In this document: positions 2,566 to 18,529 of the stretch, piece by piece
Layout: the number at the start of each line of letters is the position of its first letter
How positions within the stretch are numbered: position 1 is the stretch's first letter
Assembly: GCA_038884815.1 (NCBI GenBank)
Contig: JAWABC010000010.1
Span: 1 to 18,760 of the forward strand
Source: Candidatus Nanoarchaeia archaeon
Lineage (GTDB): Archaea > Nanobdellota > Nanobdellia > SCGC-AAA011-G17 > VGLX01
Direction of reading: 5' to 3'
Length of the DNA: 18,760 bases
Made by a program: the position numbers and the translations under genes
Notes under the pieces: model-generated
The model's input: only the letters and a program-made list of their open reading frames with translations
Database searches by the model: none
Told to the model about the DNA's origin: nothing

Positions 2566-4119
2566 GTGATTTTTTTGAAACGTTTTGTTTTCTTATTTTT
2601 TGTTGTGCTGTTTTCTGTTTTTGTTTTTGCGGAATGCGTTGATGAAGATAATGATGGCTACGGTGCTGTTGGTACTGACATATCAACCTGTCCTGCTAGC
2701 CAAATGTACTATGATTGTGATGACACAAACTCTGGAGTGTACCCCTGGACTGATGTGGGTGCTTGCGGTATGTGTGACGGCTTACTTGGTATGGTGATTC
2801 CTAAGCCTGGTTATTATTGTCCACCTACGATTTGTTCGCCTGCTAGTGGTTGTGGTGTTGGCAATTGTGGCCCTAACGTGTTTGGTGTGATGCCTAGTGA
2901 GATGTTCAATTATTGTTTGATGGACGGCAGCTGTAGCGCTTTTGAGTGCCAGGCAACTTGCGAGCCAGATGAGGATATGGACAGTTATTCTACAAGCTGT
3001 GGCGACTGTGACGATACAAACGCACAAAGTTACCCTTGGCAAATCTTTGATGTTTGTGCAATGTGCGACCCGTTTGTAGGTGTGATAATACCGCCATTCT
3101 ACCCATGCCCTAACACGATCTGCCCAGAAAGCGGTTGTGGTGTTGGTGATTGTGGGGCTCACATTTTTGGTATTTACCCAGAGACAGTTCCAAACTATTG
3201 TTTAGAACCTTATGTATGCAGTGAGAACACTTGTAAATTGACATGTGAGTCTGATGGGGATGGTGACGGTTACTCAGTAAGTTGTGGCGATTGCAATGAT
3301 GAGGATGCCACAATATACGCAGGTGCAGTAGAGCTTTGTGATGGTAAGGATAATGATTGTGATAATGTAATACCTGAAGGGGAAGTTGACAGTGATGGTG
3401 ACAGTGTTTTTGTATGTGCTGGTGACTGTAATGATGCGGAATCCACAATTTATCCTGGTGCGATAGAGCTTTGTGATGGTAAGGATAATGATTGTGATGG
3501 CATCACACCTTCAGATGAGACTGATTCTGATGGTGATGGGTTTGCCTTGTGTGCTGGTGATTGTGACGATGCTGACTCAGCTATTAATTCTGGTGCAGAA
3601 GAAATATGTGATAACAAGGATAACAACTGTAATGATTTGGTAGATGAAATAGACGATGATAGTGATGGAGTTTATGATTGCACAGATGACAAGTGTTTGG
3701 GAAGTGTTCCTTGGTTTGCTCAAAATTTGAAACCTAACCATTATGATAGCAGTAACTGGCCTGCCTCAGTCCTAAATTATGGCTGTACCTGTGATCAGGT
3801 GCTTTATTGTAAGCCAGGTGGTGATGAGGGTGAGCTAAAGTTTGGTTGTACAATTGGTACAGTGAATGTTTGGACTCAGCAGATTGGTTGGAGTTTGGAT
3901 TGCCAGCAGGATGAGAAAGTTGCAATGGAAGGTGAGTCAAAAGATTTATTTGAGAATACGGACAATGATCTCTTGTTAGACTTAGTTGATGGCGACAAAG
4001 ATAACGATGGCATACCCAATAGCGAGGACTCGGAGTCAGAATCAAAACCTGTTGAGGAAGGCAAAAGTGGTAAGGGCAGCCCTGACTGGTGGTGTAATAA
4101 ACACCCGGGTAAGTGCTGA
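2566..4119 (+). CDS. Secreted Cys/Asp-rich repeat protein (MopE-like putative metal-binding motifs plus a TSP3-like Ca-binding motif)
   Basis: Signal-peptide-like N-terminus (KRFVFLFFVVLFSVFVFA|ECVDED). The likelier start is TTG 2575, preceded by GGGGGTGA. Three repeats of DxDGDG..C(A)GDCNDxxxxIYPGAxELCDGKDNDCD, and DGDKDNDGIPNSED near the C-terminus. Confidence 0.8.
   Translation: MIFLKRFVFLFFVVLFSVFVFAECVDEDNDGYGAVGTDISTCPASQMYYDCDDTNSGVYPWTDVGACGMCDGLLGMVIPKPGYYCPPTICSPASGCGVGNCGPNVFGVMPSEMFNYCLMDGSCSAFECQATCEPDEDMDSYSTSCGDCDDTNAQSYPWQIFDVCAMCDPFVGVIIPPFYPCPNTICPESGCGVGDCGAHIFGIYPETVPNYCLEPYVCSENTCKLTCESDGDGDGYSVSCGDCNDEDATIYAGAVELCDGKDNDCDNVIPEGEVDSDGDSVFVCAGDCNDAESTIYPGAIELCDGKDNDCDGITPSDETDSDGDGFALCAGDCDDADSAINSGAEEICDNKDNNCNDLVDEIDDDSDGVYDCTDDKCLGSVPWFAQNLKPNHYDSSNWPASVLNYGCTCDQVLYCKPGGDEGELKFGCTIGTVNVWTQQIGWSLDCQQDEKVAMEGESKDLFENTDNDLLLDLVDGDKDNDGIPNSEDSESESKPVEEGKSGKGSPDWWCNKHPGKC
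2632..3246 (+). repeat. Two tandem ~100-aa Cys-rich units inside the secreted protein
   Basis: Unit 1 (aa 23-132) and unit 2 (aa 133-227) share ..CxDCDDTNxxxYPW....C(G/A)MCD...G(M/V)(V/I)IP....CPxTICxPxSGCGVGxCGxxxFGxxP.....YCL....CS...C..TC. Confidence 0.7.
3247..3636 (+). repeat. Three tandem MopE-like 'putative metal-binding motif' repeats (~45 aa each)
   Basis: SDGDGDGYSVSCGDCNDEDATIYAGAVELCDGKDNDCD / DSDGDSVFVCAGDCNDAESTIYPGAIELCDGKDNDCD / DSDGDGFALCAGDCDDADSAINSGAEEICDNKDNNCND. Confidence 0.75.
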
Positions 4120-4213
4120 TTAATTTTTTTATTTTATTTTTCTTTAATCCTACAACCGATAGCTTTTTATACCCCTCCAATAAACCCATGTGTGGGGTGT
4201 TCTTGTTTAAAAA

Positions 4214-4516
4214 ATGATCCGTGTTGAAGACATTATAGTGAAGGATAAGAAAGAGCTTGATGTTGACATAGCCCACCTCGTTAATGTGGGGCATCATGCT
4301 TTTAAGGGCAGAAGGGAGATTCATGCTAAAGGCTTTATGAATGAAGGCAAGAATAATGCTATTTCTCAGATAATAAAACTTGCTGAAAGGCTTGAAGCAA
4401 ATCTTGCTGTTATTGAAAAAGAGCATTTTCATAAGAAAGGAATTTATAAGGCCATCGTTGGTTTCTACAAGAATTTATATGATGTTAACAAGGTTGAAAT
4501 CGGTAATTCTTATTGA
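4214..4516 (+). CDS. Hypothetical protein (100 aa)
   Basis: ATG ORF with ordinary globular composition, co-directional with its neighbours. The competing 232-aa minus-strand ORF runs into the preceding gene and has skewed composition. No family recognised. Confidence 0.45.
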   Translation: MIRVEDIIVKDKKELDVDIAHLVNVGHHAFKGRREIHAKGFMNEGKNNAISQIIKLAERLEANLAVIEKEHFHKKGIYKAIVGFYKNLYDVNKVEIGNSY

Positions 4517-4699
4517 GGTTTTTCTTTATCAACTCTTATAATAATCGTTTTTGATATTTTTATTACAATTTCATAACAAAAATTACGGGAGTACTTTAAA
4601 TAAGTGGTAACACACAAACATTTATTATGTTTTTTGCAGTTCTTTAATGATAACAAAAATCGGGGTATTGCATATAATATCTTGATAGGGGGTTTTATC

Positions 4700-5323
4700 G
4701 TGAAGAGAATTAATGTGCTTGTTGTTGGTGCACACCCAGATGATATAGAAATTGGCTGCGCCGGAACTATTTCAAAACACCTGTCATTGGGGGATAAGGT
4801 TTATGCTATGGTTATGACGAACGGAGAAAAGGGGAATCATAGTCCAGGAAAAAGGGAATGTTTAAAATCATTGGAAGTTCTTGGCATAAAAGACAACGTA
4901 ATCTTTGGCAACTTTGATGATGGCTTCTTAAGAGATGACCATAAGACTGTCAGTTTTATTGAAAAATACATAAATGAATTGAACATAACAAGAGTTTACA
5001 CACATTCCCCTAACGATAGACATCAAGACCATAGGCATTGTAGCTTCGCAGTTTCTTCTGCAGCAAGGAAACGGCCTGAAATACTTCTTTTCCAAGGCCC
5101 TTCAACAACTAATTTTGAACCACATTATTTTATTGAGATATCAAAGAAGGACCTTGAAAAAAAGCTGGCTGCAATAAAATGTTATGAAACCCAGATTAGG
5201 AAAGGCACCGTGAAACCTGAGCTTATTAAAAGCATAGCTATGATACACGGTTCCACTTGTAACAAGAAGTATGCAGAGGCTTTTGCTATTAACCATTTAT
5301 TCAGGGAGGGATTATATGTATGA
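4700..5323 (+). CDS. PIG-L/LmbE-family N-acetylglucosaminyl deacetylase
   Basis: VLVVGAHPDDIEIGCAGTI (AHPDD motif) and the HQDHRH motif. The likely start is in-frame GTG 4700, preceded by GGGGG. The ORF-track start at 4604 adds 32 non-domain residues. Confidence 0.8.
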   Translation: MKRINVLVVGAHPDDIEIGCAGTISKHLSLGDKVYAMVMTNGEKGNHSPGKRECLKSLEVLGIKDNVIFGNFDDGFLRDDHKTVSFIEKYINELNITRVYTHSPNDRHQDHRHCSFAVSSAARKRPEILLFQGPSTTNFEPHYFIEISKKDLEKKLAAIKCYETQIRKGTVKPELIKSIAMIHGSTCNKKYAEAFAINHLFREGLYV

Positions 5324-6053
5324 AAGGGTCATGGCTGCTCACCAGCCTAACTTTATACCTTACCTAGGATTTTTTGATAAGATGCAGAATTCTGACATCT
5401 TTGTTATTAGGGATGAGGTTCTTTTTGTAGAGCGCGACTTTCACCATAGGAACAGGATAAGGATTAACGGCAATGACAACAATAACAACCCTCAATTTAA
5501 ATGGTTGACTGTCCCAGTTCGTCAGGTTGAGGATTACATAAAACACCAAACAATTAAGAGGGAAACAAAACAGAAGAACAGACCTTGGAATGTTCTTATG
5601 TTGCATGACATAAAGGTTAATTATGAAAGGTCGCCTTACTTCAAGCAATACTTCCCCCTAATTGAGGGCATCTTTGACAATTCTGATGAGAAGTTGATTA
5701 CCTTAAATATGAAGATTATAAATTTTTTGAGGGAAGCTTTCGGAATTAAAACAGAAGTGATTATGGCAACTGACCTCGGATTAAAACCTGAGCATTACGA
5801 GAAGTCTGATGCCTCAGAAGATTTGGTCGCTATATGCAAAGCTGTCAAAGCCAATGTTTACCTATCAGGTGCGGGAGGTAAAAACTATTTGAACCTCGAA
5901 CCTTTCAAGAGAGAGGGCATTGAGGTAAGGTTTCAAGATTACAAGCACCCCGTTTACCCCCAGCAATACCCTGGTTTCCTTCCTTACATGGGTGCGATAG
6001 ATGCTTTGTTTTGTGTTGGTAAAATTCCAAAATCCCCAGACGGAGAAAATTAA
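5316..6053 (+). CDS. WbqC-like family protein (function not established)
   Basis: The N-terminus MAAHQPNFIPYLGFFDKM..DIFVIRDEV.F....FHHRNRIRI is typical of the WbqC-like family. ATG 5316 follows GGGAGGG and overlaps the upstream stop (ATGTATGA). ATG 5331 is an alternative start. Confidence 0.75.
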   Translation: MYERVMAAHQPNFIPYLGFFDKMQNSDIFVIRDEVLFVERDFHHRNRIRINGNDNNNNPQFKWLTVPVRQVEDYIKHQTIKRETKQKNRPWNVLMLHDIKVNYERSPYFKQYFPLIEGIFDNSDEKLITLNMKIINFLREAFGIKTEVIMATDLGLKPEHYEKSDASEDLVAICKAVKANVYLSGAGGKNYLNLEPFKREGIEVRFQDYKHPVYPQQYPGFLPYMGAIDALFCVGKIPKSPDGEN

Positions 6054-7592
6054 ATGGCATTAGAAATTAATTTAGAAAAAATAACTAAGGATAATCTACA
6101 TAGGATCCTGCCTGAACTTATCAGGCTTGAGAATAATTGGGTGGGTATTGGAGATGCTCCTTGGGCCCCTGAGAATTTTGAAAGGGAACTTCCTAAAAAG
6201 TGGGAGATGAGCAGGTACGCATCTGTTTTTGGTACCATAGTTGGTTATAACATAGCTTCTATAGATGGTAACGTTGGAAGACTAAATAAGATTGTTGTGG
6301 CATCTGATTTTAGGAACAAAGGTATAGGTGACATGCTATGGAAAGAATTTCTTGAGGATTGCAGGCGCAATAAAGTTGAGCGTGCTGAATTTAAAGTTTT
6401 GCCAGATAACGAATCTGCTATAAGCTTTTACAAGAAGCGTGGCTGTTTGTTTTATGGTGATGCCATCGGCACTGACAAGAAGATTCGCCACACAGTCATG
6501 TATCCTTTTCGACTTAAGGAGAGGGTTCCCCATTCCAAGCCAACAATTTCTTCTGATGACAAGGAGGCTGTGATTAGGGCGATAGAGCATGGTGACTTGG
6601 CAACTGGTAGGATGGTTAATTACTTTATAGATGCTTTCACTGAGTATATAGGTAAAGAGTTTGGGGTTGCAACAAACAGCGGAAGTGCTGCACTCCATCT
6701 TGCGCTAAGGGCGTTGGATGTCAAGTCTGGTGATGAAGTCATTCTTCCTTCTTATGTTTGTAATGCTGTTTTGAACGCTGTTAGTTACTGTAATGCAAAT
6801 CCCGTGCTTGTTGACATAAACCCTGATGATTACAACATATCTCTTGAAGATGCCGTTGCGAAGAAGAGCGACAAAACAAAGGCTATAATTTTACCCCATA
6901 TGTTCGGTAAGCCCATAAAAAACCTTGATGATTTTTTGAAATCTTTTGAAGGTACACCCATAATTGAGGACTGCGCTCTCTCAGTAGGTGCTTCTTATAA
7001 TGGAAAAAAGGTAGGGAGCTTTGGTCGTTTATCAATATTTTCGTTACGTGCCACTAAGATGCTTGCTGCTGGTTTGGGTGGTGTTGTCCTTACAGATGAT
7101 AAAGACTTAAAAAAAAGGTTGGATGATCTTGCCACTTATGATAACAGGGTTCTGGGTGGAGAAAGTTATAACTATCAGATGTGTGATTTTAATGCTGCTC
7201 TTGCTATGAGTCAACTGAGAAGGCTTGACAGCTTCGTAAATGCAAGGAGGAACGTTGCAAAAAAATACACTGAGATGTTCCAGAATTCCAAGGTTGATTT
7301 TGAATTTCCTGAATTTGATGAAGACAACATATTTTTTAGGTATATAATAAGGCATCCTAATAGTGAGGAGTTTATGGAAAATGTTAAGAGTCGTGGCGTT
7401 GATGTTGCGAGGCCTGTTTTCCTCCCTTTACATAAGTATTTAAACCTTCCAGACGATAATTTTCCTAATACCACAAAAGCTTACCAAACTGCAGTTTCAA
7501 TTCCAATATATCCTTTGATGGACCCGCTTATCGATAACAGGACAGTTTTTAACGTTGCAGGTATACTTGTAAATTGGAGATATGAGAAATAA
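6054..7592 (+). CDS. Fusion protein: N-terminal GNAT N-acetyltransferase plus C-terminal DegT/DnrJ/EryC1/StrS sugar aminotransferase
   Basis: aa 1-150 carry GNAT motif A (VASDFRNKGIGDMLW, SFYKKRG). aa ~165-512 carry DegT features (GxxxxxFExxF-like start, SGSAALHLAL, and the PLP lysine in SLRATKML). The start ATG abuts the upstream stop (TAAATG). Confidence 0.8.
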   Translation: MALEINLEKITKDNLHRILPELIRLENNWVGIGDAPWAPENFERELPKKWEMSRYASVFGTIVGYNIASIDGNVGRLNKIVVASDFRNKGIGDMLWKEFLEDCRRNKVERAEFKVLPDNESAISFYKKRGCLFYGDAIGTDKKIRHTVMYPFRLKERVPHSKPTISSDDKEAVIRAIEHGDLATGRMVNYFIDAFTEYIGKEFGVATNSGSAALHLALRALDVKSGDEVILPSYVCNAVLNAVSYCNANPVLVDINPDDYNISLEDAVAKKSDKTKAIILPHMFGKPIKNLDDFLKSFEGTPIIEDCALSVGASYNGKKVGSFGRLSIFSLRATKMLAAGLGGVVLTDDKDLKKRLDDLATYDNRVLGGESYNYQMCDFNAALAMSQLRRLDSFVNARRNVAKKYTEMFQNSKVDFEFPEFDEDNIFFRYIIRHPNSEEFMENVKSRGVDVARPVFLPLHKYLNLPDDNFPNTTKAYQTAVSIPIYPLMDPLIDNRTVFNVAGILVNWRYEK

Positions 7593-7635
7593 AGTATACC
7601 TCAATAAAAAAAGTTGGTAAAATGGAGGTGCCCAA

Positions 7636-10600
7636 ATGGGGGCGAAAACTATTTTTTGTATGGTGATCGTTTTAGTAATTACATCATTCTTTGTTAGCGC
7701 ATTAGAGTGTCAAGTTCCTGCAACTGTTAAAGTTCATTTTATGAATGCCAGCGGTGGCAACATGGGACCAAGAGTCTATGTGGGCACAACTCAGTTGCAG
7801 TTTAATGATAGCGAACCAATACCACTTTCTCAAAATGGTCAGTTCGTTGTTGATGCGGGTTACGTTGAGAACGTTCCTGGGATAGCTTTGCAGAGGCAGG
7901 ATGGTGCTTTGAGGTTCCTTCTTTTTGGTGGGAGCAGAACCATTAAGGAAATAGTGGGTGCTGAGATTATTTTGGAAAATGCTAAAATAGTTAATTTCAG
8001 CAACGATAATGGAAGGGCTGTTACTTCTCCTAAACAGCTTAACAAGCTTGAAAACCAAGGTAACGGGAATTACGCATGGGGTGGTAATAATGATGAGGTT
8101 TTTTGGAGTAATGGAAGCAGTAATGCTACTTGGTATAGTGCTGTATATTATGATAATGATGGTTTCTACCTTTACATAGAATGTGACAAGGAAGCTATAG
8201 TTTGCAGTTCCAGTTCTGATTGTGGTGTTGATGGTTATGTTGATGCTCCAGTTTGTTCCGGTGACAACGTAGTTAGGACCTACCAATCTTTTACTTGCAA
8301 CAATCCAGGCACCCCTCAATCAACCTGTTCAGCTAGTAACTCTACTGTTATAGTTGAAACATGCTCTCATGGCTGCTCTAATGGTGCATGCATCCAGCCA
8401 TGTAACCAAAATTCTGATTGTGGTGTTGATGGTTTTGTTTCTGATCCTGTTTGTACTGGTAATAATGTTACTAGGATTTATCAGACTTTTATTTGTAATA
8501 ATCCGGGTACTCAGCAGTCAAGCTGTTCTTCTTCTAACTCAACATTAGTTATTGAAGAATGCTCCTACCAGTGTTCCAACGGTGTGTGTCAGAATTATAC
8601 ACAGTCCCAGATAAGCTGTCAGTATGCTACTTCTGCTAATGCCACCTCAGAGAATGTTGCAGGTTCTTTGGCTGTTTATGCTACCGGCGCTCCTGATGCT
8701 CCTCAAAGTGGTAATTGTAACACGTGGAGTGGTTATGGTTACACTTGGACGCCTTCTAATTGGAATGTGAAGGCTAATTTGACTTTGACTTATGATACGC
8801 TTGTTAATGCCAGCAACATTACAGTTACTGGTGATTATGACATGTGTTGGGATAGTGTTTGGCTTAGGAACAGTAAGACGGGGCAGGAAAAATTGATTTC
8901 AAGTACATACACTACTACTTGTGTCACAACTATAAATCTTGCAGAAGATTTCCAGGCAGATCAAGTTATTTTGGAGACTTGTGGTTGGGCTTGGTGTGCT
9001 ACCGATGCCGTTGAGATGTGCGGCAAGACCACATCAACACCTCCGCCTGTTTGTAGTCAGAATTCTGATTGTGGTGTTGATGGTTTTGTTTCTGATCCTG
9101 TTTGTACTGGTAATAATGTTACTAGGATTTATCAGACTTTTATTTGTAATAATCCGGGTACTCAGCAGTCAAGCTGTTCTTCTTCTAACTCAACATTAGT
9201 TATTGAAGAATGCTCCTACCAATGCTCTAATGGCACTTGTACTTCACCAGCCATATGTAATTCTAACTCCGATTGTGGTGTTGATGGTTTTGTTTCTGAT
9301 CCTTTTTGTTCTGGTAATAATGTAGTTAGGACTTATCAAACCTTTACTTGCAGCAATCCTGGAACTAGTCAGGCTAACTGTTCTGCCTCTAATTCCACGG
9401 TTGTAATCGAACAATGTTTGGATGGATGTTCAAATGGTATGTGCCAAAACCAGACTTATATTTACGTCATCCCTTACATCGGAGATATTGACGGCTTCAA
9501 AAATCCAGAATGGTTCTACTTCTATCACCAGCTAATTGATTTCCATGATGCAAATAAGATTAACATCAGCTTCAGCTTCTTTCCCGGTGCAATGAGTAAT
9601 CATGTAAACTATACTGCAGCTATGAAGAAGATGTACCTAAGCAATTATACTGAGCTTATTCAGAAAGGTTATGACGGTGTTCAGGATTGGAATATAGACC
9701 AGCTTCCTTATGAAGAGCAAAAGGCTTTATTAAAAAAAGGTCAGGATGATTTTAGGGCTAACATGAGTGTTATACTTGGTATACCTGAGAGTGCAGTGGT
9801 TATGCCTATAACAGATGATCAGGAAGGTGCAAAATTCACAGAGGTTACAAGGCAGGCTCTTGAGGATTTGGGCTTCAAATCTTATCTGGATTTCTATCTT
9901 GCTCCTGGATTGCAACCTGTCCAGCCTGCTGACGATTTTGATGTTATGCAGTATGGTGTTAGCTTTACATCAACCGGAGGTTCTGGAAGTGATCTTGACT
10001 TCAGGTCTAAGGCTGAAATAATTAACGATATTAAAACTTACAACAGGACTGATGTACCGATCACATACATAAATGGTCATATGGTTGTCCCTCTCTATGC
10101 CCACCAGCAGGATTTTGAAGGCAGAGTAGTACCAGCGCAATACGATACTGCAAAGTGGAGTATTTACACAGATACTTTACTTACTCTTAAGAATGACCCT
10201 GAGATAAGGCTGGTTACCCCTAAACAGGTTTATGAGCTTAGGCATGGTCCCATACAGCCACCTGTAACCAATTGTAGTTCCAGTTCTGATTGTGGTGTTG
10301 ATGGTTTTGTTTCTGATCCTGTTTGTACTGGTAATAATGTTACTAGGATTTATCAGACTTTTATTTGTAATAATCCGGGTACTCAGCAGTCAAGCTGTTC
10401 TTCTTCTAACTCAACGGTTGTTATTGAGGAATGTTCCTACAGCTGTTCTGGTGGTGTTTGTCAGAATGAGACAAACCAAACGCAGACAACTTTATGTCAG
10501 TATGCTACTTCTGCTAATGCCACCTCAGAGAATGTTGCAGGTTCTTTGGCTGTTTATGCTACCGGTGCTCCTGATGCCCCTAATGGTGGCGATTGCGCTG

Positions 10601-11871
10601 CCTTTAGTGGTTATGGTTATGATTGGTCACCTTCTAATTGGAATGTAAAAGCTACATTGACCTTAACTTATGATTACCCCATTTATGTAAGCAATCTCAC
10701 AGTTGTTGGTGATTATGACATGTGCTGGAGCTCTATCACTTTAAAGAACAGCCAGACAGGAGCAACAAAGAAGGTTAGTAATGAAGTCACATCATGTGTG
10801 GTGAAGTTAAACTTGGCAGAAGATTTCCAGGCAGATCAAGTTATTTTGGAGACTTGTGGTTGGGCTTGGTGTGCTACCGATGCCGTTGAGATGTGCGGCA
10901 GCACAAACCAGACAATAACCCCACCACCTCCGCCACCACCACCCGAAAATTCAACCAACGTGACAGTTTGTAAGTGGAAGAACTGCAGGAAGGGTGCTGT
11001 CTCAGTTTCAGTCGATGATGAGTATAATTCTTGTATGGACAAGCTTGAAGCTAATGGATTTAGAGGGACTTATTTCCTGACGAACACAAAGAATTATAAC
11101 ATCGCTAAGTGGAGCCTGTTCGCTGAAGGCTTCAACAAAGGTCATGAGCTAGGTACGCATATGCAAAATCATCTCTGTTATGAGGTTTCTGATTCTGTAT
11201 TTTATGACAACATAGAGAATAACATAGTGGACATAATAAGTCATACCAATGCTAAGAGGGAGGACATAGTGAGTCATGCGTACCCCTGTGGTGTTGTCGG
11301 CCAGAACTATCCCACCCTACTCATCAACAACTCGAACTTTATCTCTGCTCGTGGTTATTTCTTCAATCAGCTTGAGGATTCTACGCCCAAGCAGTGGTTC
11401 AACTTGAAGAGCTTTAACACACCTCATTACCATGAGCCTTCTTTGGAACCGCCAAACCTGCTAACAGTAATTGATAGTGCAGAGAGCCAGGGTAAGTGGG
11501 CCAACTTGGTTTTCCACAACGAATGCAGTGATGATGGTGCGATTAATTACTTAACATCCAAGAATGTTTGGGTTGACACTATAGGTAATGTTGCTAGGTA
11601 CATAAGGCTGAGGGATGCTTCAGAGGTATACAACTATGCTGAGGTAGATAATGAGATAAGGTTCAATGTTAGGGTTAATGATAATTCGATGAATGCATCT
11701 TATTATAGGCAAAACCTTACTATGTGGGTTCCTGTCGGCTCCAGTCAGGTTAGTCAGGTTAGGGTTAACAATCAAGCAGTGCCATACTCATTTGGCCAAG
11801 GCGAGCCTAACTATGTTGTGTTTGACATTCCTTTCCCGATAGGCGCAGATATTGTAGTGGTGAAGGCTTAA
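7636..11871 (+). CDS. Giant secreted/surface mosaic protein (1,411 aa) with a C-terminal CE4 (NodB-type) polysaccharide deacetylase domain
   Basis: GGAGGTG lies 5 nt upstream of the ATG. Hydrophobic signal/anchor (IFCMVIVLVITSFFVSA). Five 63-aa 8-Cys modules, two ~135-aa domains, and a Pro8 linker. CE4 motifs: SVDDE (11011-11022), HMQNH (11158-11172), AYPCG, LVFHNE. Confidence 0.85.
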   Translation: MGAKTIFCMVIVLVITSFFVSALECQVPATVKVHFMNASGGNMGPRVYVGTTQLQFNDSEPIPLSQNGQFVVDAGYVENVPGIALQRQDGALRFLLFGGSRTIKEIVGAEIILENAKIVNFSNDNGRAVTSPKQLNKLENQGNGNYAWGGNNDEVFWSNGSSNATWYSAVYYDNDGFYLYIECDKEAIVCSSSSDCGVDGYVDAPVCSGDNVVRTYQSFTCNNPGTPQSTCSASNSTVIVETCSHGCSNGACIQPCNQNSDCGVDGFVSDPVCTGNNVTRIYQTFICNNPGTQQSSCSSSNSTLVIEECSYQCSNGVCQNYTQSQISCQYATSANATSENVAGSLAVYATGAPDAPQSGNCNTWSGYGYTWTPSNWNVKANLTLTYDTLVNASNITVTGDYDMCWDSVWLRNSKTGQEKLISSTYTTTCVTTINLAEDFQADQVILETCGWAWCATDAVEMCGKTTSTPPPVCSQNSDCGVDGFVSDPVCTGNNVTRIYQTFICNNPGTQQSSCSSSNSTLVIEECSYQCSNGTCTSPAICNSNSDCGVDGFVSDPFCSGNNVVRTYQTFTCSNPGTSQANCSASNSTVVIEQCLDGCSNGMCQNQTYIYVIPYIGDIDGFKNPEWFYFYHQLIDFHDANKINISFSFFPGAMSNHVNYTAAMKKMYLSNYTELIQKGYDGVQDWNIDQLPYEEQKALLKKGQDDFRANMSVILGIPESAVVMPITDDQEGAKFTEVTRQALEDLGFKSYLDFYLAPGLQPVQPADDFDVMQYGVSFTSTGGSGSDLDFRSKAEIINDIKTYNRTDVPITYINGHMVVPLYAHQQDFEGRVVPAQYDTAKWSIYTDTLLTLKNDPEIRLVTPKQVYELRHGPIQPPVTNCSSSSDCGVDGFVSDPVCTGNNVTRIYQTFICNNPGTQQSSCSSSNSTVVIEECSYSCSGGVCQNETNQTQTTLCQYATSANATSENVAGSLAVYATGAPDAPNGGDCAAFSGYGYDWSPSNWNVKATLTLTYDYPIYVSNLTVVGDYDMCWSSITLKNSQTGATKKVSNEVTSCVVKLNLAEDFQADQVILETCGWAWCATDAVEMCGSTNQTITPPPPPPPPENSTNVTVCKWKNCRKGAVSVSVDDEYNSCMDKLEANGFRGTYFLTNTKNYNIAKWSLFAEGFNKGHELGTHMQNHLCYEVSDSVFYDNIENNIVDIISHTNAKREDIVSHAYPCGVVGQNYPTLLINNSNFISARGYFFNQLEDSTPKQWFNLKSFNTPHYHEPSLEPPNLLTVIDSAESQGKWANLVFHNECSDDGAINYLTSKNVWVDTIGNVARYIRLRDASEVYNYAEVDNEIRFNVRVNDNSMNASYYRQNLTMWVPVGSSQVSQVRVNNQAVPYSFGQGEPNYVVFDIPFPIGADIVVVKA
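8203..8589 (+). repeat. 8-Cys 63-aa modules R1 (8203-8391) and R2 (8401-8589)
   Basis: Consensus CxxxSDCGVDGxVxxPxCxGxNVxRxYQxFxCxNPGTxQSxCSxSNSTxVIExCSxxCSNGxC. Confidence 0.85.
8617..9024 (+). repeat. Unassigned ~135-aa domain, copy X1
   Basis: CQYATSANATSENVAGSLAVYATGAPDAP...GDYDMCW...NLAEDFQADQVILETCGWAWCATDAVEMCG. The flanks are DNA-identical to copy X2. Confidence 0.8.
9052..9444 (+). repeat. 8-Cys modules R3 (9052-9240) and R4 (9256-9444)
   Basis: Same consensus as R1/R2. R3 is 161 bp identical to R2 (9061-9221 = 8410-8570). Confidence 0.85.
10273..10461 (+). repeat. 8-Cys module R5
   Basis: 10284-10415 is 132 bp identical to 8412-8543 and to the matching part of R3. Confidence 0.85.
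10495..10899 (+). repeat. Unassigned ~135-aa domain, copy X2
   Basis: 10495-10565 equals 8617-8687 (71 bp identical). 10816-10900 equals 8941-9025 (85 bp identical). The core between them is strongly diverged. Confidence 0.8.
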
Positions 11872-11875
11872 GGAT

Positions 11876-12796
11876 ATGAAAAAGACAACATTGGTTTTTG
11901 GGATATGTTTTGTTTTATTTTTTATATTTCTCATCACCTTTTTTATGATGCAAAACTCTGGCAATTCTGAAGGCTTTCCTTCTAAAAAAGAAGTTGGTTT
12001 AGAATCAGGCGATTGTGTTGTAACGAATATTTGGATAGATAGTTTTTCGAGGCTTGATGTTTTAAAAGATAATAAAATCAAGTACCTTTTTGTTGATGTT
12101 GGTGACACTGGCAAGGATGGCAAGCTTAAAACCTCTGAAGAAGAGTTGATAAATTTTTTGGAGTTAATAAAAAGTTATGAAACTGAGAAGAATCATAATT
12201 TTATTCTCCTTCCTTACAGCGAGATTATAACCGATAATTATGATATAACTTCCGAAACTTTCAAGCAGAATTTTATTGACGATTATGTTCATTTGTATGA
12301 TATGGGATTTGATGGTTTGCTTGTTGATATAGAGAAAATAGATCCGGATATGAAAGATGATTATCTTGATTTATTGAATAGGTTAAAGTTAAAACTAGGT
12401 GATGATGCAATCATTGCTGTTTACGCTGGTGCCTTATCAAATTCTGATAACCCTTGGGAATGGAATCATGATTTTTATCAATCGGTTTCTGAGCGTGTTG
12501 ACTTAATTTCTGCACCCCTTTATGATTCCGATATGACTGATAACGAATCTTATAAGGCGTATGTTAAGGGTCAAGTAACTTCCATATCTTCTGCTGGCTT
12601 CAATTCAAAATTTTTATTTGCCATCCCTACACACAAAGAACCTCCTGAAACTATTGATAATGCACTTGCTGCTTACAACGATGTTTTGCATGATAATAAA
12701 AATTTCATCGGATTATGCATTTTTGCCGAGTGGACTACCGATACTAATGAGTGGTCTGTTTTTGAAAAATATGTGGATAAACAGTTTATATATTGA
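11876..12796 (+). CDS. Membrane-anchored (beta/alpha)-barrel glycoside-hydrolase-like protein (GH18/GH114-like motif; family unassigned)
   Basis: N-terminal TM segment (LVFGICFVLFFIFLITFFMM). Alternating strand-like segments YLFVDVG, ILLPY, FDGLLVDIE, IIAVYAG, LISAPLYD, FLFAIP, GLCIFAEW. GFDGLLVDIE (12308-12334) resembles the strand-4 acid motif of GH18 (FDGxDxDxE) and GH114-type barrels. Starts 4 nt after the giant gene. Confidence 0.55.
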   Translation: MKKTTLVFGICFVLFFIFLITFFMMQNSGNSEGFPSKKEVGLESGDCVVTNIWIDSFSRLDVLKDNKIKYLFVDVGDTGKDGKLKTSEEELINFLELIKSYETEKNHNFILLPYSEIITDNYDITSETFKQNFIDDYVHLYDMGFDGLLVDIEKIDPDMKDDYLDLLNRLKLKLGDDAIIAVYAGALSNSDNPWEWNHDFYQSVSERVDLISAPLYDSDMTDNESYKAYVKGQVTSISSAGFNSKFLFAIPTHKEPPETIDNALAAYNDVLHDNKNFIGLCIFAEWTTDTNEWSVFEKYVDKQFIY

Positions 12797-12839
12797 ATAA
12801 TAAAAATATTAAAAAAGCTTTGCAGTTAGCGGTATTAAG

Positions 12840-14051
12840 ATGAAAGGTCCATTTTCAATCTGGGGTTTTTTCGGTTTGACCATATGGATAGATACTTTTA
12901 CGCACGCACTTTACGAAGTCAAAGGTGATAAGCAAAAGAAGATTGATCCATACAACCCTGTTAGAGAAGTTTCTGTAATAATCCCTGCCCATAAGGAGGG
13001 AAAGCACATAGAGAAAACAATAAGAGCTTTATACAATGAAAGGTATCCTTTAAAGAACATAATAGTTTGTTCTGATAAGGAGTCTACTTTCACAAAAGAA
13101 GTTGTTGAATCCTTACTTACAGAGTACGATACTCTTTATTATCTTGAGTGCCCTCATGTTTCAAAATCTAAGAAGATAAACTATGCTGTCAAGGTGCTTG
13201 GCGATGTTTTGGGTGAGTTTGTTTACGTTCGTGACTCTAAAGTTACTGGCAACTATGACTGCATAGAACGCATGATACCTTATTTTACAGACGAAAAGGT
13301 GGCTGCTGTGACTTCTTATGGTCGCTTGAGCGTTCCTAAAAACTTCCTTTCGAGGTCTTATTATTATGGAAAGTCATGGATTAATGAGATTGGTAGGTTT
13401 AGGAAGAATGCGCAAGTGAAGAGGCAAGCCCTTTTTGTTGTTTGTGGTGCTTCCACCATGTATAGGAGAGACGTTTTGAAGAAGATACCCATCCCTTATG
13501 GAACTAAGACTGAGGATACTCATTACACTTGGAAGCTTCAGATGAACGGCTACAGGGTTAATGTTGCTGATGATGCTGTTGCATCCGCTCCTGAGCTTGA
13601 CGGTGAGGGTTTGAACGGTATTAAGAATCAGATTAAGCAGTCTTACCGCTGGAGTGCTGGCACTGTGCAATGCATCTATCGTGAGGGAAGAAAGCTTCCT
13701 AAGAATAAGAGGCTGTTTTACACAACTATACTGCCTGGTTTTTTAGAAGCCTTGTCTTACTCAACCCCTTTAATTTTGCTTCCGATGCTTTTGATTTTTT
13801 ATCCTTTTTACGCAGGTGCTTTCTTGGTTGGTGACACCGTTTTTTCTTTGGCAGGTACTGTTGTTTTGATGCCTAAGAAGTTTTGGAAAACATTGCTTCA
13901 TTACCCTCAGATATTTTTCTTTAAGTACCTTAACGCAGCCATATTCCTTTATGCCTTTGTCAAGGTTACTGCTGAAGCTGTTGCAGGTAAGACTCGCAAC
14001 TGGCATAATGAGTGGACCCCTTTGCAGACCGATTACGTTTTGGCTAAATAA
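12840..14051 (+). CDS. Processive-type family 2 glycosyltransferase (PgaC/IcaA/NodC/chitin- or cellulose-synthase-like)
   Basis: N-terminal TM segment. GT-A core VSVIIPAHKEGKHIEKTI...VCSDKEST. TED (13509-17) and QSYRW (13638-52) lie 41 aa apart. Several C-terminal TM helices follow. Confidence 0.8.
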   Translation: MKGPFSIWGFFGLTIWIDTFTHALYEVKGDKQKKIDPYNPVREVSVIIPAHKEGKHIEKTIRALYNERYPLKNIIVCSDKESTFTKEVVESLLTEYDTLYYLECPHVSKSKKINYAVKVLGDVLGEFVYVRDSKVTGNYDCIERMIPYFTDEKVAAVTSYGRLSVPKNFLSRSYYYGKSWINEIGRFRKNAQVKRQALFVVCGASTMYRRDVLKKIPIPYGTKTEDTHYTWKLQMNGYRVNVADDAVASAPELDGEGLNGIKNQIKQSYRWSAGTVQCIYREGRKLPKNKRLFYTTILPGFLEALSYSTPLILLPMLLIFYPFYAGAFLVGDTVFSLAGTVVLMPKKFWKTLLHYPQIFFFKYLNAAIFLYAFVKVTAEAVAGKTRNWHNEWTPLQTDYVLAK

Positions 14052-14278: not shown

Positions 14279-14554
14279 ATGGGGGACAGACCTGTGCAAA
14301 AATGGAGGATAGGTAACATGGAGGCTGCTCTGTGGGAAAATAAAAAAAGCATGAACGGCGCCGAAGTTACTTATTGGACTGTGTCCTTAAGCAGGGGCTA
14401 TAAAAAGAAGGATGAAGGTGTTTGGCGTAGTGAGGTTATAAATAACTTGAGGAGGAATGACATCCCAAAGTTGATTGCCATACTTGAGAAGGTTCAGGAC
14501 CACTTGTTTTTTGAGGTGCCAAAGTCTGAGCGAGAGGAAGAGGATGAGGAATGA
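14279..14554 (+). CDS. Small basic protein with an acidic C-terminal tail; possible PC4/YdbC-like ssDNA-binding protein
   Basis: AGGAGGT lies 8 nt upstream of the ATG. 91 aa ending SEREEEDEE. WRIGNMEAALWEN...VSLSRGYKKKDEGVW...L.RNDIPKLIAILEKV resembles the PC4 C-terminal-domain pattern by eye. Its stop is 9 nt from the radA ATG. Confidence 0.6.
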   Translation: MGDRPVQKWRIGNMEAALWENKKSMNGAEVTYWTVSLSRGYKKKDEGVWRSEVINNLRRNDIPKLIAILEKVQDHLFFEVPKSEREEEDEE

Positions 14555-14563
14555 GGTGGTAGC

Positions 14564-15559
14564 ATGAAAGAGGATAAAGTTGTTAAGGAAGAAAAAAAGG
14601 AGACGAAGAAAAAGAAGGAAGAGCTTACTATTTATGACTTACCTGGTGTCGGTGCTGCCACAGCAGAAAAGTTGCTCGAGGCTGGCTATTCTGATTTGAT
14701 GTCAATTGCCGTGGCTTCTCCTGGCGAGCTTGTGGAGGTTGCGGGTGTTGGCGAGGCTGTTGCAAGGAAGATGATTAATTTTGCAAGGAATTCTCTTGAC
14801 ATGGGTTTTGAGTCTGGTGATGAGTTGCTGCGGAAAAGACAAAATATAATCAAGATTACTACAGGAAGCAAGGCGTTGGATGCTTTGCTTGGAGGCGGCT
14901 TTGAGTCTGGTAGCATTTCTGAGTGTTTTGGTGAGTTCGGTGCAAGCAAGTCACAGATTGCCCACGCATTGGCTGTTAATGTTCAACTGCCAAGAGAGAA
15001 AGGAGGTGCTGAAGGTACTGCAATATTCATAGATGGTGAGTCAACTTTCAGGCCCGAGCGTATAATGCAGATTGCTAAGGCAGCAGGTTTAGACCCTCAC
15101 GAAGCTTTGAAGAACATAAAGGTTGCTCGTGCTTTCAATTCAGACCATCAGATGCTTCTTGCTGAGAAGGCTGAGGAGCTGATTAAGGAGAACAACGTTA
15201 AGTTAATCGTGGTTGATTCTTTGACTGCCCATTTCAGAGCAGACTTTACTGGCCGTGGTCAGCTTGCTGACAGGCAGCAGAAGCTTAACAAGCACATGCA
15301 CACTTTGATGAGGCTTGCTACTAAGTATAACCTTTGTGTTTATGTTACCAATCAGGTCATGGCAAAGCCAGATGTTTTCTTTGGTGACCCCACAGCTGCC
15401 ATCGGTGGTAATATTGTGGGCCATAACTCTCAGACAAGGGTCTATTTGAGAAAGGGGAAGAAAGGAACCAGAGTTGCTAAGCTTATTGACAGCCCGCATC
15501 TTCCTGATGGTGAAGCGATATTCCAAGTGACTGAAGAGGGCATCAAGGACGTTGACTGA
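14564..15559 (+). CDS. radA: DNA repair and recombination protein RadA
   Basis: HhH N-domain ([18 protein letters not shown]), Walker A region GEFGASKSQ, and FRPERI. Walker [14 protein letters not shown]. Also [13 protein letters not shown] and IGGNIVGH. Near full-length collinearity with archaeal RadA as recalled from Pyrococcus. Carries a 20-aa K/E-rich N-terminal extension. Confidence 0.93.
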
Positions 15560-16123: not shown

Positions 16124-16651
16124 CTACCACTTCTCTTTTCTTATTTTTAAGTAAAATGCTAAATGATTTATTGCTATGTGCCCCAAAGGGCTTATAATCA
16201 AAATTATAATCATGTAAGTTATCGGTGGTATAAAAATTATAAAACTAAATAATAAGCCAAAAACTATGAAGTCGATCTGGTCGAAAGGTATCCACGGCTT
16301 TCCTGACTCTATCCCAATCCTTCTTTTGAAGAAGCTTTCAAACATATCACCAAACATAGCTCCGAATCCCATCAATGCTCCAAGCAGTATAGAAATCCCA
16401 AGTTTATAATCAAAAATGCTTATCATTCTAAAACTTTCAAACCCATAAAACCGATATTGTAGAAGCGTTATTATGATTCCAAAAACCACACCCATAACAA
16501 GCCCTCTAAATGTTTTGTTCTTTCCCAGTATTGGTTTTCCTTTCCATGTTTTTCCAAAGTCTATTGGCTTTACCAATGATGGCAGTATTTTTTTTGTTAT
16601 TACTGGCGCCATGTTTGCAAAATATATGGGTGCAGCATAATATGCTGCCAT
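16124..16651 (-). CDS. carS: CDP-archaeol synthase (CarS, DUF46 family)
   Basis: ANMAPV...KPIDFGKTWKGKPILGKNKTFRGLVMGVVFG and FGAMFGDMFESFFKRRIGIESGKPW.PFDQIDF match the CarS signature regions. 175 aa, multi-TM. Confidence 0.85.
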   Translation of the reverse strand: MAAYYAAPIYFANMAPVITKKILPSLVKPIDFGKTWKGKPILGKNKTFRGLVMGVVFGIIITLLQYRFYGFESFRMISIFDYKLGISILLGALMGFGAMFGDMFESFFKRRIGIESGKPWIPFDQIDFIVFGLLFSFIIFIPPITYMIIILIISPLGHIAINHLAFYLKIRKEKW

Positions 16652-16676
16652 CAGAACTTCTTTGAAAGTTATTATT

Positions 16677-17174
16677 TCAGATCACCTTTTTTATCCTTAT
16701 TGGGCTTATGAAAAGTATTCCTATAACTAAAATAACAAAAGTTATGTATGGTAACCTTATAAAATACCATAAGGGTATTATCCAACCTGCATTTGTTATA
16801 GGCAGTCCATTATAATAATCTTTCATTTCTGTAATGTTAAATCTTGCAAGTCTTAATGCTCCTGCGCATACGAAAAACACGAGTATTATAAGGGTTAGTA
16901 TTGAATAAACCTCAGCTTGGTAGACAAAAATTGCCGGTGCAACACCAAACGAAACTAAGTCACAAAGGCTGTCCAGCTCTTTCCCAAAATTTCCCTCTCT
17001 TCTCATCATCCTTGCTACTCTTCCATCAAGGAAATCAAGGAATACCGCTGCTATCATCATCGTTGCAGCTGTGTTAAAGTCTTTTTTTATGCTAAAGATT
17101 ATGCTTAATACTCCCAATGTCAAATTACCTAAAGTAAGAAAGTCCGGTGCCTTTACTAGTTCTTTATATCTCAT
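16677..17174 (-). CDS. pssA: CDP-alcohol phosphatidyltransferase, archaetidylserine synthase-like
   Basis: D-x2-DG-x2-AR...G-x3-D-x3-D motif (DFLDGRVARMMRREGNFGKELDSLCDLVSFGVAPA) and RLARFN, as in PssA-type enzymes. Serine specificity is inferred from motif flavour and the nearby psd. Confidence 0.75.
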   Translation of the reverse strand: MRYKELVKAPDFLTLGNLTLGVLSIIFSIKKDFNTAATMMIAAVFLDFLDGRVARMMRREGNFGKELDSLCDLVSFGVAPAIFVYQAEVYSILTLIILVFFVCAGALRLARFNITEMKDYYNGLPITNAGWIIPLWYFIRLPYITFVILVIGILFISPIRIKKVI

Positions 17175-18436: not shown

Positions 18437-18529
18437 TGCCCCCGCTGGGATTTGAACCCAGGCCTCAAGCTTTTTGCAAATTGATTAATTCCGCAAGCTC
18501 GTATACTATCCAGGCTATACTACGAGGGC
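18437..18529 (-). tRNA. tRNA-Arg (anticodon GCG) with a 19-nt intron at the canonical 37/38 position
   Basis: Acceptor GCCCTCG/CGGGGGC; D-loop AGCCTGGATA (A14, G18G19, A21). Anticodon stem CGAGC/GCTTG with TTGCGG (U33, GCG, G37). T-arm CTGGG-TTCAAAT-CCCAG; discriminator A. The intron is 18472-18490. TTGC pairs with the intron GCAA as the 4-bp central helix, and 3-nt bulges are positioned at both splice sites. Confidence 0.85.

Follow-up and report, generated by a model that had tools for sequence, protein, structure and literature searches.

A conserved archaeal gene cassette as a candidate for making and modifying a surface polysaccharide

We consider here a set of six genes in DNA from a Candidatus Nanoarchaeia archaeon (contig JAWABC010000010.1 of assembly GCA_038884815.1; the whole stretch that was analysed, 18,760 nucleotides long, is called the window below). 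The set lies at positions 4604-14051, all on the forward strand, and we lean towards the view that its six genes form a single cell-surface glycan cassette, conserved among DPANN archaea. Along the six genes there is an overlap followed by gaps of 0, 43, 4 and 43 nt, an operon-like spacing. The genes, with the last three products called A, B and C, are these:

4604..5323, +, cytoplasmic de-N-acetylase of the PIG-L (LmbE) family (PF02585, E 8e-25)
5271..6053, +, WbqC-family protein (Pfam PF08889, E 2e-59)
6054..7592, +, GNAT N-acetyltransferase (amino acids (aa) ~35-150) fused to a DegT/PseC-type, pyridoxal phosphate (PLP) sugar aminotransferase (aa ~158-490)
7636..11871, +, open reading frame (ORF) of 1411 aa: protein A, multidomain, secreted or N-terminally anchored
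11876..12796, +, ORF of 306 aa: protein B, a membrane-anchored (β/α)8 barrel, divergent and similar to glycoside hydrolase family 18 (GH18)
12840..14051, +, ORF of 403 aa: protein C, a membrane glycosyltransferase of family 2 (GT2), of the cellulose-synthase/PgaC/NodC/HAS (hyaluronan synthase) type

The genes and their conservation

An initial annotation of this DNA had singled out A, B and C as three consecutive same-strand genes, separated by 4 and 43 nt; the ORF coordinates agree with this. These are real genes rather than chance ORFs: B and C have many homologs, and the motif residues are invariant, or nearly so, in the family alignments. Upstream of them, the two domains of the fusion protein match PF00583 and PF01041 (E 8e-73). 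The PIG-L and WbqC ORFs overlap by 53 nt if the WbqC ATG at 5271 is taken; the true start of PIG-L probably lies some 100 nt beyond the GTG at 4604, because similarity to its orthologs (~208 aa) begins at residue ~34.

Conservation was surveyed by tblastn of each window component against 15 distinct loci, which came from look-ups of homologs of the GT2 and of the mid domain (a part of protein A described below) as well as from scanning the GTDB species representatives once. The loci are labelled Nanoarchaeia, Woesearchaeota, Pacearchaeota, Aenigmatarchaeota or just 'archaeon'. PIG-L, WbqC, GNAT, DegT, the GT2 and the three core parts of protein A (the mid domain, a 140-aa domain and a domain of carbohydrate esterase family 4, CE4) stay together in them despite fusion, fission and reordering. 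PIG-L belongs to the cassette at 11 of the 15, and WbqC adjoins PIG-L always in the archaeal loci. GNAT and DegT are separate genes, still clustered, in L007, L009, L010, L015 and L017; the last two have the order PIG-L, WbqC, GT2, GNAT, DegT and, further on, 140-aa domain, CE4, mid domain. B was found in ten loci, and two loci have flanks too short to judge. The idea of a three-gene module thus stands as far as the linkage of A, B and C goes, the trio being syntenic in relatives across the 15 loci apart from those that lack B. As a boundary it was drawn too narrowly: the unit is larger, with PIG-L, WbqC and GNAT-DegT co-inherited. In one relative at 70% identity (L001, 7987-9902), an NTP-transferase gene and two NUDIX genes lie between B and the GT2.

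As for the cytoplasmic proteins, the best NCBIfam model for PIG-L is BshB1 (88 bits, under its cut-off of 182), and those for GNAT-DegT are PseC (201.8 bits) and LegC (192 bits), both under their cut-offs. WbqC has no NCBIfam relative and no PDB relative in a single-sequence search, and a literature search found no functional study of it. In bacteria, WbqC occurs in nucleotide-sugar clusters with PIG-L, DegT and GNAT, as on a Mariluticola plasmid (L020) and a B. cereus plasmid (L021). Hence the cytoplasmic trio is best read as an amino-sugar tailoring set. The company that WbqC keeps suggests a recurring module that deacetylates and re-derivatises amino sugars, and WbqC itself is presumed to tailor them. 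One bacterial example of the pseudaminic-acid type runs pseB, pseC, pseF, PIG-L, pseG, neuB-like, hypothetical, WbqC.

Proteins C, A and B

Protein C had been described as a GT2 with TED and QxxRW 41 aa apart and with transmembrane (TM) helices at its C-terminus. The residues and helices are located as stated: TED at 224-226, QSYRW at 267-271, 41 residues from D226 to Q267, and hydrophobic helices at ~290-381. Pfam assigns the protein to GT2 families (PF13641, E 8e-16), with a further match to Glyco_transf_21. The best NCBIfam model is PgaC_IcaA (83.8 bits, E 1e-23, residues 30-319), followed by NodC at 33 bits, CelA and HpnB at 25 each, and HpnI at 13. A profile of the family, built from 35 members that also give the column frequencies below, aligns with E. 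coli BcsA over 41-326 (E 1.9e-11), through KAxxN, DxD, TED and QxxRW and into the membrane region. With E. coli PgaC, hhalign gives a probability of 99.1% (E 1e-18, 265 columns, 24% identity). With the Dol-P-Man synthase 5mlz, only the N-terminal half of the profile aligns (30 bits). E225, D226, R270, W271, K109 and N114 are invariant in the family; T224 and Q267 each occur in 34 of 35 members, and the UDP-binding Asp, D79, in 33. K109 and N114, of the KAxxN-type motif, align to HAKAGNIN of E. coli BcsA, and the DxD position, where D132 is invariant, corresponds to DCD in BcsA and DGD in PgaC.

In the AlphaFold2 model of C (pLDDT, the predicted local distance difference test score, 88.1), a single TM helix at the N-terminus precedes a GT-A domain, QxxRW opens a long helix at 258-288, and three TM helices follow at the C-terminus. 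The top Foldseek matches of the model are CvHAS, BcsA, XlHAS (the two HAS being hyaluronan synthases of Chlorella virus and Xenopus) and S. cerevisiae Chs1; Foldseek does not separate these synthases from PcManGT, to which we return below. A single-sequence PDB search with the C-terminal half returned nothing useful. The family is sharply bounded, with ~85 homologs at 37-100% identity and the next match at 28%. Among the nearest annotated bacterial relatives of C (at most 28% identical) are PgaC, a GT2 from Listeria and bifunctional CE4/GT2 proteins, and more distant relatives of the GT2 have chitin-synthase Pfam matches. Some remote matches are GT2 domains fused to PF01522 (P0129, P0132, P0133 and a Kocuria 'bifunctional polysaccharide deacetylase/GT2'), from which we take the partnership of GT2 and CE4 to be ancient and recurrent. 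Protein C belongs to the cellulose-synthase-like branch of GT2 and is not a Dol-P-sugar synthase: it groups with synthase types in the NCBIfam ranking, in the BcsA and PgaC alignments, and in the Foldseek matches to hyaluronan, cellulose and chitin synthases.

Protein A can be divided as follows (nucleotide positions in brackets):

aa 1-29, signal or anchor
aa up to 185, N-terminal domain
aa 189-252 and 256-318 (8200..8589, +), Cys-rich ~65-aa repeats 1 and 2
aa 328-470 and 954-1093 (8617..9045 and 10495-10914, +), two copies of a 140-aa Cys-framed domain
aa 472-538, 540-607 and 880-946 (9049-9249, 9253-9456 and 10273-10473), Cys-rich ~65-aa repeats 3-5
aa 609-880 (9460..10275, +), 'mid' domain
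aa 1096-1102, poly-Pro linker
aa ~1110-1320 (10963..11595, +), CE4 (NodB-homology) de-N-acetylase domain
aa 1321-1411 (11596-11868), C-terminal tail of ~90 aa

All of the motifs from which the initial annotation recognized a secreted protein with a C-terminal CE4 domain are present: DD at 1127-1128, H1175-x3-H1179, AYPCG at 1215-1219 and LVFH ending at H1294, behind a hydrophobic N-terminus (1-29). The protein has 63 Cys and 37 N-glycosylation sequons, or 2.6 per 100 aa compared with at most 0.84 in its cytoplasmic neighbours. Together with the signal-like N-terminus, these features argue for an extracellular location. In the CE4 domain, D1127, D1128, H1170, H1175, H1179, P1217, G1219, R1239 and H1294 are invariant; for D1127, D1128, H1175, H1179 and H1294 this holds in all eight orthologs compared. 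Its motif 2, H1175-M-Q-N-H1179, aligns to the HTxxH of 5o6y, 4l1g and 8hfa, and GHELGTHTQxH as a whole to the GHxIGxHTxxH of solved peptidoglycan N-acetylglucosamine (GlcNAc) deacetylases. Motif 3 (AYPCG) has another residue in place of its Arg, but the invariant R1239 lies nearby. Five positional orthologs of the domain score 45.2, 39.8, 36.9, 35.4 and 30.4 bits, all over the PF01522 gathering cut-off (GA) of 23.1. Judged by these residues, the CE4 domain has the full putative Asp-His-His metal triad together with the predicted catalytic Asp and His.

The mid domain has no Pfam match, and a profile search found no PDB match. When 1.84 billion representative proteins were searched exhaustively with its profile, only 78 clusters came up. 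The two weakest informative matches in the tail of that search (P0206 and P0215) are genuine DUF2334/PF01522 proteins, and hhalign aligns the mid domain with P0206, which matches PF10096 and PF01522, at a probability of 98% (E 2.8e-13). In this alignment QKGYDG stands opposite the metal-binding QHGYDH, so that both His are lost; GDIDG (616-620) and HQQDFE (823-828) are invariant in the mid domain. The alignments support its being a divergent domain of the DUF2334/CE4 superfamily, predicted to be without the His-His metal site. The link to the superfamily is transitive, as it runs through DUF2334 proteins. That the mid domain arose directly by duplication of the CE4 domain at the C-terminus was considered and rejected (hhalign probability 0.7%). 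In some genomes the mid domain is also encoded as a stand-alone secreted gene product of ~300 aa. The L001 ortholog of A (2692-7044) has one more domain at its C-terminus, a canonical DUF2334/PF01522 domain in which the His residues are intact.

The two copies of the 140-aa domain are 74% identical to each other, and the domain adjoins the CE4 or the mid domain in 13 of the 15 loci. Its alignment has invariant Cys, Trp and GD residues, and no relatives were found in Pfam or in a PDB profile search; it may be a carbohydrate-binding module. Pfam likewise gave no match for this domain, for the N-terminal domain or for the Cys-rich repeats. The latter are 65-97% identical to one another by BLAST. 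Elsewhere, DUF4215 or MopE repeats take their place, and orthologs of A range from 486 to 1450 aa with the mid domain, the 140-aa domain and CE4 as the common core. This means that the large repeat scaffold is a lineage-specific decoration. The initial annotation had the deacetylase displayed on a huge adhesin-like scaffold; a large repeat protein is indeed present here, yet the scaffold is not a conserved part of the system. The collinear ortholog in L001 has 1450 aa and is 72% identical. At the DNA level, gene A contains five direct copies of a 182-nt repeat (69-96% identical, within 8203-10454) and a duplicated block of 234 nt plus 93 nt (82-97% identical, within 8617-10900). Such near-identical repeats leave scope for recombination and copy-number variation, and carry a risk in short-read assembly.

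Protein B has a hydrophobic N-terminal helix (1-29) and GFDGLLVDIE at 144-153. The eight-strand-like β/α pattern that had been noticed in this TM-anchored protein is confirmed by the AlphaFold2 model (pLDDT 91.2), which has eight β-α units. NCBIfam and a single-sequence PDB search gave no significant match. There are 42 homologs of ~300 aa (best E 1e-138), nearly all unannotated, and all of them have the N-terminal hydrophobic helix. In an alignment of 41 members, the basis of the counts that follow, the invariant residues lie at or just past the C-terminal ends of the β-strands: N51/W53, D74, Y114/E116, D151/E153, Y183, D217 (Y216 in 39 of 41), H253 and E285/W286. The putative catalytic residues are D151 and E153 on β4 and Y216 and D217 on β6, with W286 on β8.

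A Foldseek search of the PDB places GH18 first (4wiw, SleL and B. cereus ChiNCTU2, E 6e-10 to 1e-7). Eight of the ten top matches are GH18 (6e-10 to 1e-6), and generic TIM barrels begin at ~1e-6. When the family profile is compared with the PDB, 23 of 23 matches are GH18, with YdhD the best at 7.4e-5; VDIE pairs with IDFE/LDFE, and Y-D with the GH18 (M/A)YD motif. PF00704 is matched by five of the 41 family members (best E 3.2e-8), the EndoS TIM barrel by one, and Spherulin4 (GH135) weakly by one (E 0.015). Against the GH18 motif DxxDxDxE, B has D146-G-x-L149-V-D151-I-E153: the first Asp is kept in 37 of 41, the third Asp and the Glu are invariant, and the second Asp is Leu, Phe or Tyr, the same reduced motif as in YdhD. 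From motif and model, B is a putative divergent, membrane-anchored GH18-type enzyme with the reduced D-x-E motif of the SleL/YdhD subgroup, so the 306-aa protein does have a glycoside-hydrolase-like fold. GH18 chemistry is substrate-assisted and requires a 2-acetamido group, as in chitin; a GH18-type B with a D-x-E motif is therefore predicted to cleave next to an N-acetylated sugar by substrate-assisted catalysis. An assignment of B to GH153 was rejected (hhalign against E. coli PgaB, probability 0.15%). In L004 (Woesearchaeota, 8510-9844), a 444-aa membrane protein at B's position has a borderline match to SLT, a lytic transglycosylase family (PF01464, 20.7 bits; GA 21.3). It may be a non-orthologous replacement of B by another enzyme that cleaves a GlcNAc-containing glycan.

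What the cassette may make

On balance we favour the reading in which the cassette makes an N-acetyl-amino-sugar surface polymer, de-N-acetylates it partly and trims it outside the cell; the identity of the polymer, its processive synthesis and its export are what we infer. In the predicted topology the GT-A domain of C is cytoplasmic and A and B are extracytoplasmic. If so, C would use a UDP-sugar on the cytoplasmic side to polymerise a β-linked chain of the N-acetylhexosamine type, and would pass this chain outward. The CE4 domain of A would strip part of the N-acetyl groups and leave a partly cationic polymer, while the mid and 140-aa domains might hold the chain or act on it in some other way. 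B, at the membrane, would cut stretches that are still acetylated, since substrate-assisted catalysis needs an intact N-acetyl group, and would thereby trim or release the polymer. PIG-L, WbqC and GNAT-DegT would supply or tailor the amino-sugar donor or a primer in the cytoplasm. Candidates for sugar and linkage are a chitin/chitosan-like β-1,4 polymer, a β-1,6 polymer like poly-N-acetylglucosamine (PNAG), and a polymer of a modified diamino sugar. The initial annotation had already proposed synthesis, deacetylation and trimming of such a polymer. The enzyme classes, the catalytic residues and the synteny bear this out in part; its scaffold is not conserved, its unit was too small and its hydrolase is sometimes missing. 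Its further suggestion that the polymer could be an attachment matrix is speculative.

Several observations weigh against this reading. The score of C, 83.8 bits, is far from the cut-off of the PgaC/IcaA equivalog model (TIGR03937), 422.3, and C is likewise far under the equivalog cut-offs of the NodC and CelA models; it is at most 28% identical to any annotated synthase found. The best global superposition on C is with a non-processive enzyme, PcManGT (6yv7; TM-scores 0.66/0.76, root-mean-square deviation 5.0). The second Asp of DxD (D132-S-K134 here) is Arg or Lys in 23 of the 35 family members and Asp in two; a basic residue at this metal-ligand position hints that donor binding in the clade may be metal-independent. 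No small membrane partner like PgaD/IcaD was found, nor a conserved small membrane ORF in the other loci, and with only 1+3 TM helices in C a complete translocation channel is not evident. The CE4 domain of the window scores 18.2 bits in the whole protein and 20.7 alone, under the PF01522 GA. B itself matches no Pfam family and is absent from L003/L014, L004 and L015, that is, from three of 13 judgeable loci. Finally, the cassette has no conserved sugar dehydratase or dehydrogenase from which the aminotransferase could obtain a keto-sugar.

Some of these points could mean that C is a non-processive or short-chain GT2 of the PcManGT, NodC, HpnI or ceramide glucosyltransferase type and not a polymer exporter. 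The cassette would then build a defined oligosaccharide, a glycolipid or an S-layer glycan, which A and B remodel outside, and PIG-L and GNAT/WbqC would act like NodB and NodA to deacetylate and re-acylate it. PcManGT is the top single-sequence PDB match as well as the best superposition, C matches Glyco_transf_21 and ceramide glucosyltransferase is among the PDB profile matches. The lack of a PgaD/IcaD-like partner and the co-location of cytoplasmic PIG-L and GNAT with the GT2 fit too, as would the TM topology of NodC, which we take to resemble the 1+3 helices of C. Against this, QxxRW, TED and KAxxN are conserved as in processive synthases, the profile match to PcManGT spans residues 40-168 only, and PgaC/IcaA is by far the best model, HpnI and HpnB lying well below it. 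A large CE4 protein outside the cell that has additional putative binding domains, alongside an endo-type GH18-like enzyme, fits a polymeric substrate better, and the bacterial PIG-L/WbqC/DegT/GNAT genes sit in nucleotide-sugar pathways, not Nod-like ones. We regard a short-chain product as unlikely, if still deserving attention.

Another potential role for A and B is offensive or nutritional: they could attack foreign peptidoglycan of a host or of bacteria, or environmental chitin, with the GT2 and the cytoplasmic enzymes no more than neighbours in a surface-glycan island. The closest solved relatives of B are indeed the peptidoglycan-cortex hydrolases SleL, YaaH and YdhD, those of the CE4 domain are peptidoglycan GlcNAc deacetylases, and the protein at B's position in L004 has its borderline SLT match; PIG-L enzymes also take part in archaeal chitin catabolism, in the Thermococcus pathway. 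Yet B is tethered by its conserved helix to the cell's own membrane, which puts it beside the synthase and not at a target wall. Moreover, A, B and the GT2 stay linked through fusion, fission and reordering in four DPANN groups, and the conserved set has no sugar transporter, kinase or catabolic enzyme. Such a role seems to us improbable. Hardly credible at all is the idea that there is no functional module and that the genes adjoin by coincidence or through an artefact of annotation or assembly. It is true that the internal DNA repeats of gene A, identical at up to 96-97%, can mislead assemblers, and that the window is a single contig of a metagenome-assembled genome. Fifteen independent loci, of different lineages and in different assemblies, nevertheless have the same gene set, gene A has its collinear ortholog in L001, and the family-wide invariance of catalytic residues implies purifying selection. 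The synteny survey effectively refutes an artefact.

The favoured reading, a polymer made, partly deacetylated and trimmed, has clear parallels. C is closest by sequence to PNAG synthases, the combination of GT2, CE4 and GH18 matches chitin/chitosan machinery, and the logic parallels the PNAG, Pel and galactosaminogalactan (GAG) systems. The PNAG systems (E. coli pgaABCD, staphylococcal icaADBC) also have a membrane GT2 with D, TED and QxxRW, an extracytoplasmic CE4 enzyme acting after synthesis and a glycoside hydrolase in the same cluster. They differ in having the small membrane partner PgaD/IcaD; an outer-membrane porin, absent here as the organism is an archaeon; and, in PgaB, a GH153 hydrolase where B is GH18-like. 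In the cassette the deacetylase belongs to a multidomain protein of its own, whose second, DUF2334-like domain is devoid of the metal site; DxD has become Dx(R/K), and the cytoplasmic PIG-L, WbqC and GNAT-DegT are added. With no PgaD/IcaD, no GH153 and a score far under the equivalog cut-off, the cassette is not a member of the pga/ica group.

Chitin and chitosan machinery, whether the fungal synthase with CE4 and GH18 or rhizobial NodC with NodB, shares the GT2 with QxxRW, the CE4 and the GH18; Chs1 is among the structural matches of C, and NodC is its second-best NCBIfam model. However, C is much less similar to NodC (33 bits) than to PgaC, the fungal genes are unclustered, and NodB is cytoplasmic whereas the CE4 enzyme of the cassette is extracellular. 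B, which lacks the second Asp of DxxDxDxE, is nearer to the SleL/YdhD subgroup than to classical chitinases. With Pel (PelA) and fungal GAG (Agd3/Sph3/Ega3) the cassette shares a logic, in which an N-acetylhexosamine polymer is made cationic and adhesive by partial extracellular deacetylation and a (β/α)8 hydrolase is encoded in the cluster. The families are different: PelF is a GT4 and Agd3 a CE18, and the hydrolases belong to GH166, GH135 and GH114, none of which is among the top 50 structural matches of B.

Three further comparisons concern single proteins or pairs of them. PcManGT, the membrane mannosyltransferase of Pyrobaculum calidifontis, is an archaeal GT2 of similar size to C with a minimal cellulose-synthase-like fold. 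Its match to C lies mainly in the nucleotide-binding half, and it has DD at the TED position of C. PcManGT is presumably a user of GDP-mannose in N-glycan synthesis, and we know of no association of it with CE4 or GH18 genes. Actinobacterial CE4-GT2 proteins (the MatB-like PNAG synthase/deacetylase) are 23-26% identical to C; there CE4 is fused to the synthase, while in the cassette it belongs to a separate secreted protein. The Bacillus spore-cortex enzymes PdaA (CE4) and SleL/YaaH/YdhD (GH18) include the nearest solved relatives of B, paired with a CE4 enzyme on a GlcNAc-containing glycan, and share with B the reduced motif in which only D-x-E is kept. Their substrate is peptidoglycan, made by a different pathway, for which there are no synthesis genes here, and they have LysM domains where B has a membrane anchor.

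Most likely, then, the cassette follows a known bacterial and fungal strategy with parts that are unusual and in some cases unannotated. It is believed that DPANN archaea live attached to other cells, and few of the molecules behind this attachment are known. The cassette, of which we found no description in DPANN in the searchable literature, offers a concrete and conserved candidate for a DPANN surface polysaccharide. If the reading is correct, the combination of synthase, partial de-N-acetylation and dedicated hydrolase extends from bacteria (PNAG, Pel) and fungi (chitosan, GAG) to archaea. For three 'hypothetical' families (the GH18-like B, the DUF2334-like mid domain and the 140-aa domain), the cassette also suggests a function that can be tested, and it brings to notice a GT2 clade with Dx(R/K) in place of DxD. 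A bolder version, which we hold to be rather doubtful, has an undescribed cationic, chitosan- or PNAG-like polymer that glues episymbionts to their hosts and that contains, or is primed by, a diamino sugar tailored by PIG-L, WbqC and GNAT-DegT. It would involve a metal-independent GT2, with a basic residue for the metal-binding Asp, and two new enzyme families, namely an offshoot of GH18 and the DUF2334-like domain, which lacks the metal site and would have a new activity.

Surrounding genes

The remaining features of the window that were recorded lie on either side of the cassette:

990-1064, -, ordinary tRNA-Pro(CGG)
1562-2494, -, NAD-dependent sugar epimerase/dehydratase (GalE-, TviC- or LegB-like)
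2566-4119, +, secreted 517-aa protein with 46 Cys and MopE-type repeats, directly upstream of the cassette
14279-14554, +, 91-aa ORF for a soluble protein whose C-terminal tail is acidic, between the GT2 and radA
14564-15559, RadA, downstream of the GT2
16124-17174, CDP-archaeol synthase-like and CDP-alcohol phosphatidyltransferase genes
18437-18529, -, 93-nt tRNA by Rfam (47.7 bits)

RadA and the genes at 16124-17174 mark the window as archaeal. The tRNA at 18437-18529 was not reported by ARAGORN and is probably an intron-containing archaeal tRNA. Among the loci, L008, the closest, is the only one in which the epimerase/dehydratase is conserved (79%) in the corresponding place; it may supply a sugar substrate for the cassette and lies outside the conserved set. 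The 91-aa ORF belongs to no Pfam family, has a counterpart at 77% identity in L001 and is found in L022. It was considered as an analogue of PgaD/IcaD and rejected, being soluble and kept only in the closest relatives. A link of this ORF to radA is more likely than one to the glycan genes.

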